From: a virus
Lineage: Duplodnaviria; Heunggongvirae; Uroviricota; Caudoviricetes
IMG/VR virus record: IMGVR_UViG_2740892423_000004
DNA: 4,279 nt
Direction: 5' to 3' (one strand)
Below the pieces are notes generated by a model. The model ran no database searches. It saw only the letters and a program-made list of their open reading frames with translations, and was not told where the DNA came from. The position numbers and the translations under genes are program-made. Positions 37-4,279 of the stretch are shown in pieces (positions within the stretch are counted from its first letter, which is position 1; every line of letters begins with the position of its first letter).

Positions 37-117
37 CAAAGTCATCGGGCATTATCTGAACATAAAACACTATCAATAAGTTGGAGTCATTACCAAATAA
101 ACATATCGAATTAACTT

Positions 118-124
118 AAGAGGA
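118..124 (+). promoter_or_regulatory. Shine-Dalgarno motif (AAGAGGA) for the chaperone gene
   Basis: GAGGA at 120-124 lies 7 nt upstream of the ATG at 132. Confidence 0.5.
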
Positions 125-131
125 AACAAGA

Positions 132-440
132 ATGAATATTAATGAAATGCTGAAAGCTCTTTCTCCGAAACGCGAATCTCTGACCATCGGTGGATTCACT
201 TTCTATGCTCGCCCTATGTCAGTAAAAGAATTTAACGAACATGTTTTCAATACCGATAAAGATGACCGTGATGAACGTTCTATTCTTCGTTGTATTGAAG
301 ATGAAGACGGTAAACCAGTATTTGAATCTATGGAACAAGTTAAGGCACTGTATACTAACGTCCGCAGTGAATTAATCGGTTTGGTTGCTCAAGCGTCATT
401 GATGCAAGATCCGACAGTAATTGAAAACGAGGTAAAGTAA
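132..440 (+). CDS. Tail assembly chaperone, short form (lambda gpG-like), 102 aa
   Basis: ORF with a good RBS, sitting immediately upstream of the tape measure gene. It is small and acidic, and its last 16 nt overlap a downstream ORF in the -1 frame, which is the conserved G/GT arrangement. Function is assigned from synteny and architecture, not verified homology. Confidence 0.7.
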   Translation: MNINEMLKALSPKRESLTIGGFTFYARPMSVKEFNEHVFNTDKDDRDERSILRCIEDEDGKPVFESMEQVKALYTNVRSELIGLVAQASLMQDPTVIENEVK

Positions 441-469
441 ACCCGCTTCTGAATTTCTATTTTCGGCAA

Positions 470-811
470 ATGATGCGATCGGGGCTTAGTAAAGATGAAA
501 TGGATAATATGCCAATCACTCTGTTTTGGAAATTATACATTTTCGACACCTACTTAGAACCACAAAGCCCCGCGTTTCATGATATGCAGAATGCGATGTT
601 GCAATATTCCATGTATATGACGTCGCAAGGAATGACACGCGAAACTGCACGCAAACTCAAGCCTAGCCAATTCCAATTAATTAGAGAAGAAAAACTCTTT
701 AAAACTAAAGAAGAACTGGAAGAAATTGCACGCAAGAAAGAAGAAGAACGTAAAGCGGCAATGCTGAACATGTTTGATCCATCTTTGCTTGAGAAACTCA
801 GAAGCGGTTAA
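470..811 (+). CDS. Tail assembly chaperone frameshift extension (lambda gpT-like segment); probably made only as a -1 frameshift fusion with 132-440 (about 226 aa)
   Basis: This ORF is in the -1 frame relative to 132-440. Its frame is open from 425 (upstream stop TGA at 422-424), overlapping the end of the upstream ORF. No convincing Shine-Dalgarno precedes the ATGs at 470, 473 or 500. It ends 11 nt before the tape measure start. The charged C-terminal part is consistent with a tape-measure-binding T domain. Confidence 0.6.
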   Translation: MMRSGLSKDEMDNMPITLFWKLYIFDTYLEPQSPAFHDMQNAMLQYSMYMTSQGMTRETARKLKPSQFQLIREEKLFKTKEELEEIARKKEEERKAAMLNMFDPSLLEKLRSG

Positions 812-816
812 AGGGG
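811..816 (+). promoter_or_regulatory. Shine-Dalgarno motif (AAGGGG) for the tape measure gene
   Basis: AAGGGG at 811-816 lies 6 nt upstream of the ATG at 823 and overlaps the stop codon of the preceding ORF. Confidence 0.5.
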
Positions 817-822
817 TAATTT

Positions 823-3252
823 ATGACAAAACATATAGTAACAATAGAAGGGGATAATAAAGGTCTAAGGAGAAGTACCAATGAAGCCGCCGACCTTCTC
901 GATAGTTTGTCTGAAAAGGCAAGTAATATTGATTTTGGTGGTGGCTTATCTGGTCTGACTGGATCTCTTCGTGGGATCGCTGGCTCTGCTGGTTTGGCTG
1001 CTGGTGGTATCGGCTTAGTTGCGACCGCAGTGGTTGCAGCCGCTAAAGCTGGCGCGGAATACGTTAAACAATATTCAGAAGTATCTAAGGCGACCGGACT
1101 CTCGATTGAATCCCTTCAAAGACTGGAAAAGGAATTTTCTGGTACTGGCCTAACAGTTGAAAAATTCGGTGATATCAACAAAGACACCTTAGATAAGATG
1201 GGTGATGCATGGGCTAACGGTGGTGGTATTGCTGATGACTTAGAATCGGTTGGTCTTAAGTTAGAAAACTATGCTCACTTCATGACAGATCCGCAAGGTG
1301 GTATGAAAGCGGCGATCCAAGTGTTCTATGACATGAAGAAAGCCGGAAAATCAATGGCTGAAATCAAGTTCATGATGGAATCTTTAGCCAGTGATTCAAG
1401 CCATATGACCAGCCAGCTTGAGAAATATAATAGTGCTCAAGAGGCGATGATCGCTATTCAGAATCAATCTGTTAACGTCACCGAAGAAAACGCTAAAAAA
1501 TATGATAAATTTTCTCAGAATATTAATAAGCTGGAAAATAACCTGAAAGGCGCAGCCATGACCATTACTGGTCCTTTGGTTGATAGCTTAAACTGGTTAT
1601 TTGAATGGTTTAATATTGATTGGGAAAAGAGTTCTCTATTCAGGGCATTAGACCGTCTGAATAAAGAAGGTAAGACCGCAACTGGTGGTATTCTTAACAC
1701 CAACCATAAAGACGCTCAAAAGATTATTGACAAGTACAATAAAGAAAAGCGTTGGAATAATCTAGCAGATTGGGAAAAGGCCGCGATCCGTGGTGCTGGT
1801 GTCGATCCTCGTACTGCTGGCTTTGATGTAGAAGGATTTAAGAAACGTTTTGGTGGGTCTTATAAGAAAAATGGTGCTCTGATTGTCGTAGATGCTGGTG
1901 AACATCTGACACGCAAGGCAGATCCTAACACTGATTTAACTCTACCAAATAAACCAGTAAGACCAGAATCATTGGGTAAATCTGGCAACGAGAAGAAAGC
2001 CGAGGAAGAAGCACGCAAGAAAGCGGAAGAGGCAGCTAAAAAGGCTAAGGAAGCCGCAGAAAAAGCACAGAAAGAACGTGAGGATGCAATCAAGCGTCTG
2101 AATGCACTTGATGTTAAATTGCAAGGGCAAGTTGCAGCGTCTATTGCTTCTCAAAACAAGCAGTTAGAAGCCAGCTTGAAAGATTTGGATACTGCTTTAG
2201 ATCTGGGCTTAATCTCTCAGCAAGACGCAGCCGCGAAACGCCAATCCTTAATCGATCAGAATACTGAAAACGTATACAAGATGATTTTAGGTGCTGATCC
2301 GGTTGATGCTCTGAATGCTTTAACACAATTGCAACAAATCAGGGATAATGAGTTAGAAAGCCATAAACGGTTACTTGATGGTAAGGCTATCTCCTACGAA
2401 GAATATATGCGTCGTGTGAATGATACCGAACAAAGTTATTCGCAGATTGAAGATTCTTTGCATGGAATGGATGGTTTTAAAACCAATCAGTTGACCAATA
2501 GCTTAGACTATCAGGACTCAAATAATCCGTTTGCTAAATTTAATGCAATCGATAAAGAGAAATCGGAAGCCGAACAAGATTATAAAACCGATAAACTCAA
2601 GATTGATGGGATCACCGATCCGGCTAAACGGATGGAAGAATTAGAAAAACTCAATGAAAACCATCAAAAACGAATGGCTGCAATTGAGAAGAAATATGCT
2701 GATGCTCGCCAGTCAATAGCCGATGATATGTACGGCGGTTTTGCTGCTGCAATGACTCTCTTCGGGCAGGAAAACACTAAAGCTATGCAGATGGCTTTCA
2801 ATGCTCATAAAGCATTCTCTATCGGACAAGCGACGGTGAACATGTGGACGGCTGCTACCGATGCATGGAACGATCCGACCAACGTAACCACAGGTCAAAA
2901 AATCGCTGCTGCTGCATTGGCTGTTTCTCAGAACATGGGGAACATCGCAAACATCAAGTCTACTAACGTTAGCGGTATGGCTCATGATGGTATCGATAAT
3001 ATCCCTCGTGAGGGTACATGGTTGCTTGATAAGGGTGAACGAGTAGTTGATCAGCGTACTAACGGTGATTTGAAAGACTTCCTTGCTGCTCAAAAATCAG
3101 GCGGTGGCAACTCTCAGCCGATTGAAGTTAACGCACCTTTGAACATTAACGGCAACGTTAATAGCTCAGACAAGATGGTCATGGATGCTATCAAACGTCA
3201 CGCTAAGTTAGTTGCTCAGGCGGTAGAAGACGCACAACGCCGTAAGATGTAA
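823..3252 (+). CDS. Tail tape measure protein, 809 aa
   Basis: It is the longest ORF and sits directly after the chaperone pair. It has a Gly/Ala-rich hydrophobic segment near the N-terminus (about aa 39-80), long predicted helical charged regions including a KAEE-type low-complexity stretch (about aa 387-425), and a C-terminal region that resembles the conserved C-terminus of lambda-family tape measure proteins as I recall it. Stop is TAA at 3250-3252. Confidence 0.9.
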   Translation: MTKHIVTIEGDNKGLRRSTNEAADLLDSLSEKASNIDFGGGLSGLTGSLRGIAGSAGLAAGGIGLVATAVVAAAKAGAEYVKQYSEVSKATGLSIESLQRLEKEFSGTGLTVEKFGDINKDTLDKMGDAWANGGGIADDLESVGLKLENYAHFMTDPQGGMKAAIQVFYDMKKAGKSMAEIKFMMESLASDSSHMTSQLEKYNSAQEAMIAIQNQSVNVTEENAKKYDKFSQNINKLENNLKGAAMTITGPLVDSLNWLFEWFNIDWEKSSLFRALDRLNKEGKTATGGILNTNHKDAQKIIDKYNKEKRWNNLADWEKAAIRGAGVDPRTAGFDVEGFKKRFGGSYKKNGALIVVDAGEHLTRKADPNTDLTLPNKPVRPESLGKSGNEKKAEEEARKKAEEAAKKAKEAAEKAQKEREDAIKRLNALDVKLQGQVAASIASQNKQLEASLKDLDTALDLGLISQQDAAAKRQSLIDQNTENVYKMILGADPVDALNALTQLQQIRDNELESHKRLLDGKAISYEEYMRRVNDTEQSYSQIEDSLHGMDGFKTNQLTNSLDYQDSNNPFAKFNAIDKEKSEAEQDYKTDKLKIDGITDPAKRMEELEKLNENHQKRMAAIEKKYADARQSIADDMYGGFAAAMTLFGQENTKAMQMAFNAHKAFSIGQATVNMWTAATDAWNDPTNVTTGQKIAAAALAVSQNMGNIANIKSTNVSGMAHDGIDNIPREGTWLLDKGERVVDQRTNGDLKDFLAAQKSGGGNSQPIEVNAPLNINGNVNSSDKMVMDAIKRHAKLVAQAVEDAQRRKM
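1990..2097 (+). repeat. Purine-rich low-complexity coding tract (encodes EKKAEEEARKKAEEAAKKAKEAAEKAQKERED)
   Basis: Runs of GAA/AAG/GCA codons giving a Lys/Glu/Ala-rich, probably coiled-coil segment inside the tape measure gene. Confidence 0.6.
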
Positions 3253-3254
3253 TT

Positions 3255-3302
3255 AAAAGCCCCCATAGTCATAAATAATCATAAAACTATGGGGGCTTTT
3301 CT
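3255..3302 (+). terminator. Candidate intrinsic terminator or mRNA-stabilising hairpin (possibly bidirectional) between the tape measure gene and the next gene
   Basis: Perfect inverted repeat: AAAAGCCCCCATAGT (3255-3269) pairs with ACTATGGGGGCTTTT (3286-3300) around a 16-nt AT-rich loop, followed by TTTTCT. The A-tract before and T-tract after give the same structure on both strands. The right arm contains the GGGGG that would act as the Shine-Dalgarno for the ATG at 3303. Confidence 0.55.
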
Positions 3303-3863
3303 ATGTTCAAATCCAAGAATATTAAAATCACAGATTTTACTCTTAAATCAAAACAGCCTTTCTTCAAGGCGCAATCTATCTCCGGTAAATTTCAACGTCG
3401 CTTTACTGGCATTCATTTTTACGAAGCAGAATTTACCGCGAATTACATGGCTCAGGATATTAACGAAGTAAAAGAATTTGTAGCACGTCACCTTTTTGGT
3501 CGTCCTTTTAGTGTGCCACTGTCTTACTTTTCAAAATATACAGGTGATGTACGCCAGATGGTTACGGCTGCTGCTGGTACTGCTCGCGGTGGGCGTAAGG
3601 TGAGAATCTCCAACTTCACCGGAACACTGAAAGCGGGAACTATCATCCAGTTTGAGAACCACAAGAAAATCTACACGATCACCGAAGATGTGAAATCAGG
3701 TGGCGAAATGAAACTCTTCCCTAATTTGCGTCAGAACGTCCTGGCTGGTGAGGTGATCAAGTATCAGAACGTAGAAGGTGAATTTGTTCTCAAAACGGAA
3801 AATATCGATTGGAAGATCGCCCAGATTGGCAAGATGAAATTCGAATTAGTGGAGAATGTATAA
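3303..3863 (+). CDS. Minor tail / distal tail protein (lambda gpM-position protein), 186 aa
   Basis: ORF directly after the tape measure gene, with GGGGG 7 nt upstream of the ATG. The N-terminal roughly 80 aa show a pattern (…EF.A.Y…E..EFV..H..G.PFS…) that resembles lambda gpM as I recall it. The C-terminal roughly 100 aa is an extra domain of unknown type. Stop is TAA at 3861-3863. Confidence 0.75.
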   Translation: MFKSKNIKITDFTLKSKQPFFKAQSISGKFQRRFTGIHFYEAEFTANYMAQDINEVKEFVARHLFGRPFSVPLSYFSKYTGDVRQMVTAAAGTARGGRKVRISNFTGTLKAGTIIQFENHKKIYTITEDVKSGGEMKLFPNLRQNVLAGEVIKYQNVEGEFVLKTENIDWKIAQIGKMKFELVENV

Positions 3864-4189
3864 TGGCAACTATTCAGGAATCATTCAGCAAACTATGCAC
3901 TAATCTGGACTTCATCGAGGTATACAACGACCAGACAGGTCAGAATGTGTCTAGATTGACTCTACCGCAGCTTTTCTCTACTGGCTCGATGTTTCACATT
4001 ATCGAAGTGATAACAGCGTCAGGGGACGTTCTACGGCTTACAGATGGGTATTTCGATTTGGACTATAACGGTTTTACATATCTCGCAACGGGTGATTTTC
4101 TTCAAATCTCATCGAATACCGAAGAGAAGGAGATCAACAACAACGGGATCAACGTAACTGTTTCTAACGTTCGCGAAGAATACATTTGA
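3863..4189 (+). CDS. Minor tail protein, 108 aa (sits in the lambda gpL position; possibly corresponds only to the N-terminal part of L-family proteins)
   Basis: The ATG at 3863 overlaps the upstream stop (TAATG), and GGAG lies 8 nt upstream. The track ORF 3809-4189 is the same frame, but its start would overlap the upstream gene by 55 nt and has no RBS. Stop is TGA at 4187-4189. The functional call is from synteny plus a weak remembered resemblance. Confidence 0.65.
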   Translation: MATIQESFSKLCTNLDFIEVYNDQTGQNVSRLTLPQLFSTGSMFHIIEVITASGDVLRLTDGYFDLDYNGFTYLATGDFLQISSNTEEKEINNNGINVTVSNVREEYI

Positions 4190-4216
4190 AGTGGTTTACT
4201 GAATTTGGCCACCTGA

Positions 4217-4265
4217 ACAGAGGTGATATGCTCACCTCAGAACAACACAGGTGCCATAATGAAAA
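4217..4265. other. Nested inverted repeats in the spacer between the 108-aa gene and the next gene
   Basis: Inner stem GAGGTGA (4230-4236) pairs with TCACCTC (4242-4248) around a 5-nt loop TATGC. Outer arms CACCTG (4220-4225) and CAGGTG (4258-4263). There is no following T-tract, so it is not a typical intrinsic terminator. Confidence 0.5.
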
Positions 4266-4268
4266 AAA

Positions 4269-4279
4269 GAAATTTCAGC
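4269..4279 (+). CDS. Start of the next CDS (3'-truncated by the window end); product unknown, by position a further tail-tip gene
   Basis: ATG at 4269 (MKKRNFS…) with AGGTG 5 nt upstream. An alternative start is the ATG at 4238 in another frame (MLTSEQHRCHNEKKKFQ…), with AGAGG 4 nt upstream. Too little sequence to decide. Confidence 0.25.

Follow-up and report, generated by a model that had tools for sequence, protein, structure and literature searches.

In the coat/replicase gene pair of RNA coliphages, as well as in several operons of E. coli, translation of neighbouring genes is coupled by ribosome-mediated unmasking of the Shine-Dalgarno (SD) sequence. In bacteriophage T4, the SD sequences of e, soc, 49 and the I-TevI gene, and likewise that of mobE in phage Aeh1, are locked in a helix in those transcripts that are initiated upstream (PMC3014915). 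A late promoter box of the TATAAATA type is placed such that the locally initiated transcript is devoid of the 5' strand of this helix and hence is translated (PMC3014915). According to the definition of the T4 late box, it occupies positions -13 to -6 with respect to the start of transcription, and its first position is variable in T4 too (PMC2988020).

The locus considered here belongs to a stretch of 4,279 nucleotides (the window) from a Caudoviricetes record of IMG/VR, whose core is a 4.1-kb prophage remnant (95-4185) flanked by IS1 and an IS3-family element. Intact copies of the prophage are found in about 50 E. coli genomes, integrated at hicB, and relatives of the hicB-integrated prophage are also present in Salmonella. 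Examples of strains with the intact prophage are E. coli MEI003, where it occupies about 224.7-260.4 kb of CP071263.1 (locus L002), and HCP5S3_I4. The intact E. coli prophage, 35.7 kb in length, is temperate, encodes a serine recombinase and has a siphovirus-like tail; the E. coli members of the family are without recognisable replication genes. In E. coli the fragment 95-4185 occupies one place per genome (median 1, maximum 2). The plasmids searched contained zero copies of the prophage fragment, and at the DNA level isolated phages gave no match except for a short tape measure segment. Both IS junctions of the window are absent from the complete E. coli genomes in the collection and from the compared loci, and the hairpin element of the window, situated in an IS-bounded remnant, is probably no longer in use. 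The features referred to below are as follows.

823-3252, plus strand: tape measure gene, 809 aa (open reading frame list, PGAP product name, DNA similarity).
3255-3269, plus strand: left (5') arm of the stem, AAAAGCCCCCATAGT (folding, inverted repeat, co-variation with the right arm).
3270-3285, plus strand: loop of 16 nt, A/T-rich, CATAAATAATCATAAA (sequence, folding, relatives).
3270-3277, plus strand: CATAAATA, a 7/8 match to the T4 late promoter box TATAAATA (box comparison, relatives).
3283, plus strand: predicted transcription start, assuming T4 late-promoter geometry.
3286-3300, plus strand: right (3') arm of the stem, ACTATGGGGGCTTTT, holding GGGGG (3291-3295) and the U tract.
3297-3300, plus strand: TTTT run straight after the GC core, a terminator-like U tract (TTTTT in many relatives).
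3303-3863, plus strand: distal-tail-protein-like gene, 186 aa, first of the tail-tip unit (homologue lengths and N-termini, Pfam).

The genes on either side of the hairpin had been assigned to the tape measure and the tail tip by an earlier, sequence-only reading, and product names, gene neighbours and Pfam agree with this assignment. PGAP names the 809-aa open reading frame a tape measure protein in a 100%-identical E. coli copy, and its C-terminal part shows DNA similarity to annotated tape measure genes. The start of the downstream gene at ATG 3303 is indicated by its homologues, since nearly all full-length ones measure 185-187 aa and have an MFKSKNIK-type N-terminus in common. In Pfam, the 186-aa product weakly matches the B domain of pb9, the distal tail protein of T5, and the order of genes runs from chaperone-like open reading frames via the tape measure and the pb9-like distal tail protein to the hub, a DUF6950 protein and a tail-tip protein.

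Between the two genes lies the perfect 15-bp hairpin that had been described before: its arms (3255-3269 and 3286-3300) comprise 15 nt each, are 100% complementary and enclose a spacer of 16 nt. They constitute the longest perfect inverted repeat of the window and also of the intact 35.7-kb prophage, and the longest one in 300 dinucleotide shuffles of the window measured 12 (spacer 3-40 nt). The folding-energy calculation proposed in the earlier reading yielded -25.6 kcal/mol for the RNA 3245-3315, compared with -9.7 +/- 2.3 kcal/mol for 200 dinucleotide shuffles (z = -6.9). Two details of the former description had to be amended: the gap from the tape measure stop (TAA, 3250-3252), which lies 2 nt from the stem foot, to ATG 3303 covers 50 nt (3253-3302) instead of 52 nt, and the element is not one perfect palindrome but a stem-loop whose 16-nt loop is not palindromic. 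In variants that feature a G at the first loop position, a short upper stem is possible. No Rfam 15 covariance model matched anywhere in the window at an E-value of up to 1.

The stem persists, with both arms changing together, in relatives from E. coli and Salmonella that share 68-100% identity with the window in their distal tail proteins. Double-sided compensatory changes occur at pair 5 in Salmonella (G-C to T-A) and at pair 9 in locus L072 (C-G to T-A), two paired indels add or remove pairs on both arms at once, and in two lineages a C-to-T exchange results in a U.G wobble, which pairs only in the plus-strand RNA. The table of pairs behind these observations was made by hand, since the automatic structural alignment (A6) had mixed in minus-strand matches and unrelated terminators. 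Compensatory changes, paired indels and the plus-strand-only wobble together support selection on the stem in plus-strand RNA. Moreover, because L072 replaces CCCCC/GGGGG by CCTCC/GGAGG, and thus by the canonical SD sequence, on both arms together, the right arm is identified as the SD sequence.

Beyond this clade, the more distant relatives L046 and DCP80 also possess a hairpin immediately behind the stop codon of the tape measure gene, but it has no U tract and leaves the SD sequence free; termination and masking are therefore clade-specific additions. Hairpins upstream of distant homologues of the distal tail gene (47-50% identity; L003, L038-L041, L048-L050 and L074-L079) were considered as independent proof of SD masking and rejected. 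In these loci the gene is not preceded by a tape measure gene, a lysozyme gene runs divergently on the opposite strand, and two divergent SD sequences together with two divergent ATAAATA boxes make up the inverted repeat, so that both arms are probably never found on one RNA.

With respect to translation, the best partner of the anti-SD sequence upstream of ATG 3303 is UGGGGGC (-8.4 kcal/mol), which contains the GGGGG at 3291-3295. The last G of this run is 7 nt away from the ATG, and other genes of the same phage employ GGGGG-type SD sequences at a similar spacing. The proposal that the hairpin buries this ribosome-binding site is borne out by folding. In read-through RNA the GGGGG of the right arm is fully paired in the minimum-free-energy as well as in the ensemble structure (predicted unpaired probability 0.00); its partner is the CCCCC of the left arm (3260-3264), which mimics an anti-SD sequence, while the AAAA foot of the same arm pairs with the U tract. 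For an RNA starting at 3283, on the other hand, the predicted unpaired probability of the SD sequence amounts to 0.59. A comparison of five junction versions, two from E. coli (the window and a further copy) and three from Salmonella relatives, gave values of 0.32-0.64 for RNAs starting 6 nt after the ATAAATA motif of the loop, as opposed to 0.00 for the read-through RNAs. At other junctions CCTCA or CCCTC, located directly 3' of the motif, pairs with the downstream SD sequence and would be missing from transcripts that start 6 nt after the motif. For several other junctions, folding predicts little or no unmasking.

The further claim that translation of the tip genes is held low until the structure is opened would apply to the read-through RNA, where the SD sequence is predicted to be paired. 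If the loop acts as a promoter, however, only the read-through RNA would be silenced, since the tip genes would then be expressed from a transcript that never contained the left arm. An effect on the stoichiometry between tape measure and tip proteins, which had also been put forward, is a weak argument, as both kinds of proteins are low-copy.

The earlier reading overlooked the loop and its motif ATAAATA. Although adjacent loop positions differ between the relatives from E. coli and Salmonella, this core (3271-3277) is invariant among them; the box of the window starts with C instead of T. The distance from ATAAATA to the ATG amounts to 25-27 nt across the relatives and to 25 nt in the window, which contains a single copy of the heptamer. 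Throughout seven family loci, which are mutually related and hence do not provide independent counts, ATAAATA is the commonest intergenic heptamer (32 observed versus 6.5 expected), whereas coding DNA contains 3 copies instead of the expected 29.5, a depletion of about ten-fold. No other of the 21 A5T2 heptamers is as rare in coding sequence, on the sense strand as well as on the antisense strand. Most copies precede a correctly oriented start codon by 26-34 nt, often directly after a terminator. They are also found on both sides of divergent gene pairs, as exemplified by the terminase/198-aa pair in E. coli, Salmonella and Proteus. Within the structural and lysis region of the intact E. coli prophage, the motif is found upstream of terL, of the distal tail gene and of the gene with which the lysis region begins, and nowhere else, which defines the junction of tape measure and distal tail genes as a unit boundary.

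This distribution across the family makes it likely that the loop motif is a promoter. A sigma-70 promoter was considered for the loop and rejected: no acceptable -35 element exists at 16-18 nt, a promoter scan found nothing there, and ATAAATA fits the -10 hexamer poorly; any register retaining the -11 A misses the -7 T. Under T4 late-promoter geometry, the predicted RNA from 3283 would begin 3 nt before the right arm and carry a 20-nt leader with a free SD sequence.

Hence, we favour, at about even confidence, a reading in which a weak-to-moderate terminator, a stem that silences read-through RNA and an internal promoter with a translatable transcript lacking the left arm are combined in one element. 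It would constitute a compact boundary between two transcription units with three overlapping functions, and the hairpin probably ends one unit and starts the next. First, the upstream RNA of the terminase-to-tape-measure unit would fold into the 15-bp stem, which in conjunction with its U4-5 tail would act as a weak-to-moderate intrinsic terminator. Second, in RNA that escapes termination, pairing of CCCCC with GGGGG would render the distal tail protein translationally silent. Third, a promoter in the loop, (N)ATAAATA, which corresponds to the core of the T4 late box, would initiate transcription near 3283 if T4 geometry applies. The resulting transcript would contain no left arm and could thus form no hairpin; termination would not occur at this site and the SD sequence would be free. 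As an outcome, the tail-tip genes would be expressed essentially from their own promoter. Sequence and comparison establish the stem, its maintenance through compensatory exchanges, the location of the SD sequence in the right arm and the non-random occurrence of the motif; the promoter function, the start site, the efficiency of termination and the factor that would recognise the motif are inferred.

If this is true, three signals within 46 nt would stop the upstream unit, silence leakage and restart transcription with a translatable message. A promoter inside the loop of the very terminator that it escapes would represent a compact insulator, of interest for phage regulation as well as for synthetic biology. 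If the promoter part is wrong, an ordinary, well-conserved terminator-like hairpin overlapping a ribosome-binding site would be left.

In the first alternative, the hairpin behind the tape measure gene is simply a leaky attenuator or intrinsic terminator that does no more than lower transcription into the tip genes; the overlap with the SD sequence would be a side effect of the short gap, and the loop motif A/T filler. That the element terminates or attenuates transcription had already been suggested, and its shape complies with this. An 11-bp GC-containing core (-19.2 kcal/mol) followed by UUUU(U)CU is kept in the E. coli and Salmonella relatives, the foot AAAAGCC...GGCTTTT is in the style of the other terminators of the prophage family, and the capsid and tail tube genes are likewise followed by terminators. 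The expected strength of termination is less clear-cut, since the classical score is borderline to moderate. With the formula of d'Aubenton-Carafa, most hairpin variants score positive, but the window reaches 1.6, L002 12.8 and L051 17.5, whereas the reference terminators trp t and lambda tR2 obtain 25-36. The borderline value of the window is due to its 16-nt loop and short U tract, and a terminator scan of the window did not call the hairpin. What renders a plain terminator unlikely is that it does not account for the loop heptamer, invariant amid changing neighbours and distributed in a strongly non-random manner across the family, nor for the co-variation of CCTCC with GGAGG, which preserves the pair of anti-SD and SD sequences specifically. 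In addition, the essential tip genes would rely wholly on read-through RNA with a buried SD sequence.

A second alternative is translational coupling, in which the stem masks the SD sequence and the ribosome finishing the tape measure gene melts the left arm, so that the distal tail protein would be made only from mRNAs that have just yielded tape measure protein; the same ribosome could also weaken termination. It is well established that ribosomes can unmask SD sequences and that a nearby stop codon can weaken a terminator. The fully paired SD sequence of the read-through RNA and the position of the stop codon, 2 nt from the stem foot in E. coli and in Salmonella loci L051-L053, are in accordance with coupling. 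Among the relatives that keep the hairpin, however, this distance varies from 2 to 9 nt (8-9 nt in L045 and L054-L056). Furthermore, a ribosome at the stop codon would reach the first few pairs only and leave the C5/G5 core intact, which is at least 8 nt away from the stop in all of them, and the conserved loop motif is left unexplained. We therefore regard coupling as rather improbable as the sole account, although it is compatible with the preferred boundary of terminator, mask and internal promoter as a secondary route beside it.

Just a few nt past nearly every structural gene of the prophage lies a stable GC-rich hairpin, in many cases with no U tract. This is consistent with a further role, that of a 3'-end protector or processing hairpin, which would stabilise the tape measure message against 3' exonucleases or mark a cleavage site without any part in initiation. 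The idea is also in line with L046 and DCP80, where a tight hairpin directly behind the tape measure stop is all that is present. Yet it leaves unexplained why the SD sequence is located in a co-varying arm and why the motif is conserved at a fixed distance from the ATG, and a stem of 15 bp is short for RNase III; we thus deem it improbable to a considerable degree. An element acting at the DNA level, such as a cruciform, a small mobile repeat or the binding site of a dimeric protein, is scarcely credible. In its favour are the perfect symmetry of the arms, flanked by A and T tracts, and one contig (L013) in which IS1 is inserted exactly at the hairpin foot. However, the arms change in sequence and yet stay complementary, which is the opposite of a protein-recognition site, and the C-to-T variants pair only as plus-strand RNA. 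When 479 kb of family loci were searched with a covariance model of the element, only the orthologous junction and weak matches to generic terminators were retrieved. Neither a protein footprint nor copies of the hairpin at unrelated positions, as in REP- or MITE-like elements, were seen, and no Rfam family matched.

Provided that the loop motif is a promoter, the question arises which factor would recognise a T4-like late box when the element has no recognisable gp55. The search covered the complete E. coli prophages L001 and L002 and parts of the loci of Salmonella, Proteus and other relatives. In these, tblastn with gp55, gp33 and gp45 of DCP80 returned no match, and sequence searches against Pfam, PHROGs, NCBIfam and the PDB disclosed no sigma-like proteins. 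The predicted folds of the conserved 198-aa and 152-aa proteins do not resemble sigma factors either; a very divergent late factor is conceivable. Among isolated phages, Escherichia phage DCP80 alone encodes related terminase and distal tail proteins. The record of this phage was considered as proof that the structural module travels with gp55 and was rejected, because it is a scrambled assembly (rIIA present three times, many duplicated T4 genes).

Given T4-type boxes without recognisable gp55, gp33 or gp45 in the family, and E. coli members without recognisable replication genes, the prophage could need a superinfecting T4-like phage. The family would then be a T-even-dependent hitchhiker or satellite, or else a decoy, whose structural genes are switched on by T4-like superinfection, a scenario that we consider speculative and distinctly unlikely. 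In that case, the hairpin would ensure that tip proteins are made only from late-box transcripts and never from read-through in the lysogen; the T4-type boxes of the family precede the packaging, tail-tip and lysis units. In a milder version, an unrelated factor of the family's own could have converged on the T4 box.

Among the described systems, intrinsic terminators, including bidirectional ones with A and T tracts, share with the present element the GC stem, the immediate U run and the 5' A tract. They differ from it in loop size, which is 16-17 nt here instead of 3-8 nt, while only 4-5 U residues follow the stem and the start codon is located 2-3 nt past the U tract. The likeness to translationally coupled systems consists in a downstream SD sequence paired to a segment within reach of the ribosome that terminates upstream. 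Here, however, the distance from stop to stem is not conserved, the GC core is beyond the reach of the ribosome, and the promoter-like motif would provide a ribosome-independent way round the mask.

The closest resemblance is to the T4 module of e, soc, 49 and I-TevI, with which the element has in common the masked SD sequence and the box core ATAAATA, whose distance from the start codon is comparable as well. The start predicted from T4 geometry, 3283, would lie downstream of the left arm, with the putative promoter box between the arms. In contrast to T4, the host of the module is a 35.7-kb temperate siphovirus-like prophage with a serine recombinase, gp55, gp33 and gp45 are not detectable in its family loci, and the upstream transcripts would be late structural instead of early ones. 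Moreover, the arrangement deduced here from sequence comprises a helix that is also terminator-shaped and a box inside its loop. If the preferred reading is correct, the principle known from e, soc, 49 and I-TevI would thereby extend to temperate siphovirus-like prophages that are common in E. coli and Salmonella.

The phage DNA of the window is a 4.1-kb remnant bounded by two insertion sequences, since the end of such an element lies at either extremity, as the following features show.

1-94: IS1 end
132-440 and 470-811, plus strand: two tail-assembly-chaperone-like ORFs (from the ORF list)
823-3252, plus strand: tape measure gene, 809 aa
3303-3863, plus strand: distal-tail-protein-like gene, 186 aa, weakly matching the B domain of the T5 distal tail protein pb9
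3' of the latter, plus strand, cut at 4185: hub gene, start only
4186-4279: end of an IS3-family element (labelled IS911 or transposase in matching records)

A 100% identical copy of the 4,091 phage bases lies within a prophage of E. coli HCP5S3_I4 that is otherwise largely intact, and full-length copies of 90-97% identity occur in about 50 complete E. coli genomes, in every case on the chromosome. The two IS junctions of the window are absent from the complete E. coli genomes in the collection, no copy of its phage DNA was found on plasmids, and a DNA-level search of isolated phages matched nothing beyond a short tape measure segment. The intact prophage of E. coli MEI003 (L002) comprises 35.7 kb inserted in hicB, in the order terminase, portal, capsid, fibre, tube, chaperones, tape measure, distal tail protein, hub, DUF6950, tip, lysis genes and serine recombinase. 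The window's own copy of the hairpin element, lying in an IS-bounded remnant, is probably a fossil. In IMG/VR contig 2690316210_000001 (L013, 1-60), a second, independent IS1 insertion beside the tape measure/distal tail protein junction takes the place of the tape measure side, the IS1 end meeting the hairpin precisely at its 5' foot (...GCAGCATCACC / AAGCCCCCC...).

The hairpin arises from an inverted repeat of 3255-3269 with 3286-3300, in which 15 of 15 positions are complementary across a 16-nt spacer. The sequence-only reading had described exactly this hairpin, and the folding energy calculation it proposed bears it out (-25.6 kcal/mol, z = -6.9 versus shuffles), as do the repeat lengths: shuffling the window's dinucleotides 300 times gave no perfect inverted repeat above 12, and the 15-bp repeat is the longest perfect one in the entire intact prophage. 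On the other hand, the intergenic gap measures 50 nt rather than the 52 nt first given, and it does not form one palindrome, the 16-nt loop being non-palindromic. A search of the window against Rfam yielded zero matches. The best anti-Shine-Dalgarno (anti-SD) partner 5' of the ATG is GGGGG at 3291-3295, a type of SD that is also found at other genes of the same phage.

Orthologous junctions were gathered from 41 viral contigs, 19 metagenome contigs and Salmonella genomes reached via distal tail protein homologues, counting only loci in which a tape measure gene of the same orientation precedes the distal tail protein gene, and their pairs were tabulated in a hand-made structural table.

Hairpin arms at orthologous junctions
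E. coli: 5' arm AAAAGCCCCCATAGT; 3' arm ACTATGGGGGCTTTT
Salmonella relatives L051-L053: 5' arm AAAAGACCCCCTAGT; 3' arm ACTAGGGGGTCTTTT
Salmonella relatives L045, L055, L056: 5' arm AAATACCCCCTAGT; 3' arm ACTAGGGGGTATTT
Metagenome contig L072 (88% protein identity): 5' arm AAAGCCTCCATAGT; 3' arm ACTATGGAGGCTTT

According to this table, double-sided changes affect two stem pairs (G-C to T-A and C-G to T-A), two stem pairs are gained or lost simultaneously in both arms, and a lone A.C mismatch occurs in one contig. Moreover, a single C-to-T change giving U.G occurs in one lineage of E. coli and in one of Salmonella; because this variant pairs in plus-strand RNA alone, its minus-strand equivalent being an A.C mismatch, it speaks for a structure in coding-strand RNA and against a site in the DNA. 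In metagenome contig L072, GGGGG is replaced by the canonical GGAGG and its partner by CCTCC, which is strong comparative evidence that the right arm acts as the SD and that selection keeps the left arm complementary to it. Further away, in L046 (56% identity) and phage record DCP80 (43%), a tight hairpin directly follows the tape measure stop, with the SD free and the U tract absent, so the post-stop hairpin is an old feature. SD masking and U tract are traits of the E. coli/Salmonella clade and locus L036.

Hairpins with an SD in the right arm at distant homologues (47-50% identity) were rejected as a test of the RNA hairpin, because their arms are two divergent ribosome-binding sites, the upstream neighbour being a lysozyme gene on the opposite strand. 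At several loci (L048 1-4720; L049 2963-4702; L003, L038-L041, L074-L079) the distal tail protein and hub gene pair diverges from the lysozyme gene, so that the tail module is divided in an unusual way, with a near-symmetric pair of ATAAATA boxes and SDs in the intergenic region; in L048, two small genes and one of 754 aa, taken as chaperone- and tape-measure-like, come after the lysozyme gene. In Salmonella serovar Manhattan (L045, 3495-3503) the deposited start of the distal tail protein homologue is ATC, the likelier start being an in-frame ATG 6 nt upstream (MSIFNS...).

The sequence-only interpretation, which holds in part, overlooked a signal in the loop. The first eight loop nucleotides, (C/G)ATAAATA, are kept in E. 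coli and Salmonella while the remaining loop drifts (AATCATAAA, CATCAAAA, TCATTAAA), the distance from ATAAATA to the ATG is constant at 25-27 nt, and the window holds this single copy. In the intact E. coli prophage 12 of 12 copies are intergenic, half of them (6/12) lying 26-34 nt 5' of a correctly oriented start codon, including on both sides of the divergent pair of large terminase gene and 198-aa gene. The same pattern recurs in Salmonella, Proteus and more distant relatives, and the motif often stands directly 3' of a terminator (e.g. gcggggtttttcATAAATA). Over seven loci it is the commonest intergenic heptamer (32 observed versus 6.5 expected) and about ten-fold depleted in coding DNA (3 versus 29.5). 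Among 21 A5T2 heptamers in coding sequence it has the lowest count for the sense strand (1) and shares the lowest for the antisense strand (2). Since both strands avoid it, the signal more likely acts in the DNA, as a promoter, than as an RNA motif. The same heptamer forms the core of TATAAATA, the late promoter box of T4. The T4 box is located at -13 to -6, is most variable at its first position and functions without a -35 requirement (PMC2988020).

Within the structural and lysis region of the intact E. coli prophage, the box occurs only before the large terminase, distal tail protein and first lysis-region genes, which would make the junction of the tape measure and distal tail protein genes the boundary where a head-plus-tail-shaft unit gives way to a tail-tip unit. 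Elsewhere in the family, CCTCA or CCCTC immediately 3' of the box pairs with the downstream SD and would be omitted from the predicted transcript starting 6 nt past the box, the same trick in a different geometry.

A stretch of about 1.4 kb without annotated gene (L002 2524-3909; L080 12793-14230; L081 12205-13663) is retained at the same left-arm position in the prophages of E. coli, Salmonella and Proteus; its ORFs do not exceed 53 aa and it matches nothing in Rfam. In E. coli it carries three ATAAATA copies together with a minus-strand sequence near 2975-2945 that fits the sigma-70 consensus perfectly (TTGACA, 17 nt, TATAAT). The Salmonella prophages L051 and L053-L056 encode T4-type, UvsW- and UvsY-like recombination genes, and CapR/DUF723-type genes, at least one preceded by an ATAAATA box, are inserted in their structural module. 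No replication gene is recognisable in the E. coli prophage.

With moderate confidence, we regard the element as a composite of terminator, translational mask and internal promoter, everything past the structure and its conservation being what we infer from sequence. In RNA arriving from upstream the stem would form, its foot and U4-5 tail being terminator-like, and any read-through RNA would have its SD buried. Transcription from the loop box with T4 geometry would start at about 3283, 3 nt 5' of the right arm, and yield a transcript in which the hairpin cannot form and which hence would not be stopped by it. The predicted probability of an unpaired SD is 0.00 in read-through RNA versus 0.32-0.64 in loop-initiated RNA over five junction versions (the window, one other E. 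coli copy and three Salmonella relatives), which, together with the anti-SD match of GGGGG, supports the masking proposed earlier.

Termination, likewise proposed earlier, is plausible in that a stem and a U tract are present, though the loop is not compact. The foot AAAAGCC...GGCTTTT is typical of the family's terminators. The d'Aubenton-Carafa score is 1.6 for the window, 12.8 for the MEI003 prophage and 17.5 for Salmonella L051, and negative for L056 and L036 as delimited here, both of which keep the hairpin; trp t and lambda tR2 score 25-36, with the formula and both reference sequences entered by hand. A plain leaky terminator would account for the shape but leaves the invariant loop motif and the SD/anti-SD co-variation unexplained, and we consider it unlikely. 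Ribosome-mediated coupling, which the 2 nt separating stop and stem in E. coli would suit, is slightly less likely again, given that this distance is 8-9 nt in Salmonella relatives keeping the hairpin and that the GC core is beyond the ribosome's reach, although coupling may act additionally. That the hairpin merely protects the 3' end agrees with the presence of hairpins after almost every structural gene of the phage and is improbable, as it accounts for neither SD nor motif. A DNA-level site or mobile repeat, contradicted by the co-variation, the strand-specific wobble and the absence of further copies in 479 kb of family loci, is hardly credible. These readings are not mutually exclusive, and the suggestion that the element sets the stoichiometry of tape measure to tip proteins is weakly supported.

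In the MEI003 prophage, the frame remains open past the UGA of the capsid and tail tube genes (13440-13600 and 19270-19450) for 28 and 39 codons, and a motif (NEELPE...VTAKATAK...) is common to both extensions, with a nearly identical terminator, AGCCCTGCCT..GGTGGGGCTTTTTT, behind each; programmed stop-codon read-through may extend both of these major structural proteins by a Lys-rich tail.

Escherichia phage DCP80 (L058-L060, PQ671644.1), labelled a T4-like Gaprivervirus, looks like a scrambled assembly, with rIIA present three times and exonuclease, primase and spackle genes duplicated. Its first ~26 kb form a siphovirus-like module related to the window's prophage, with TATAAATA boxes after terminators and an unannotated distal tail protein gene homologue at 16905-17462.

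The composite reading has its counterpart in the T4 genes e, soc, 49 and I-TevI, where the ribosome-binding site is sequestered in transcripts begun upstream, and translatable ones come from late promoters within the region encoding the 5' strand (PMC3014915). The logic of a masked versus a locally initiated transcript is the same. However, homologues of gp55, gp33 or gp45 or a sigma-like protein were not found in two complete E. coli prophages and the available parts of the relatives' loci, and the predicted folds of the two conserved unknown proteins modelled are not sigma-like. Because such late-factor genes are a defining feature of the T4 modules, membership fails there, and the element is proposed to work like these modules, not to be one. 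In contrast to them, it would double as a terminator, its box sits in the hairpin loop, and its host is temperate with a siphovirus-like tail.
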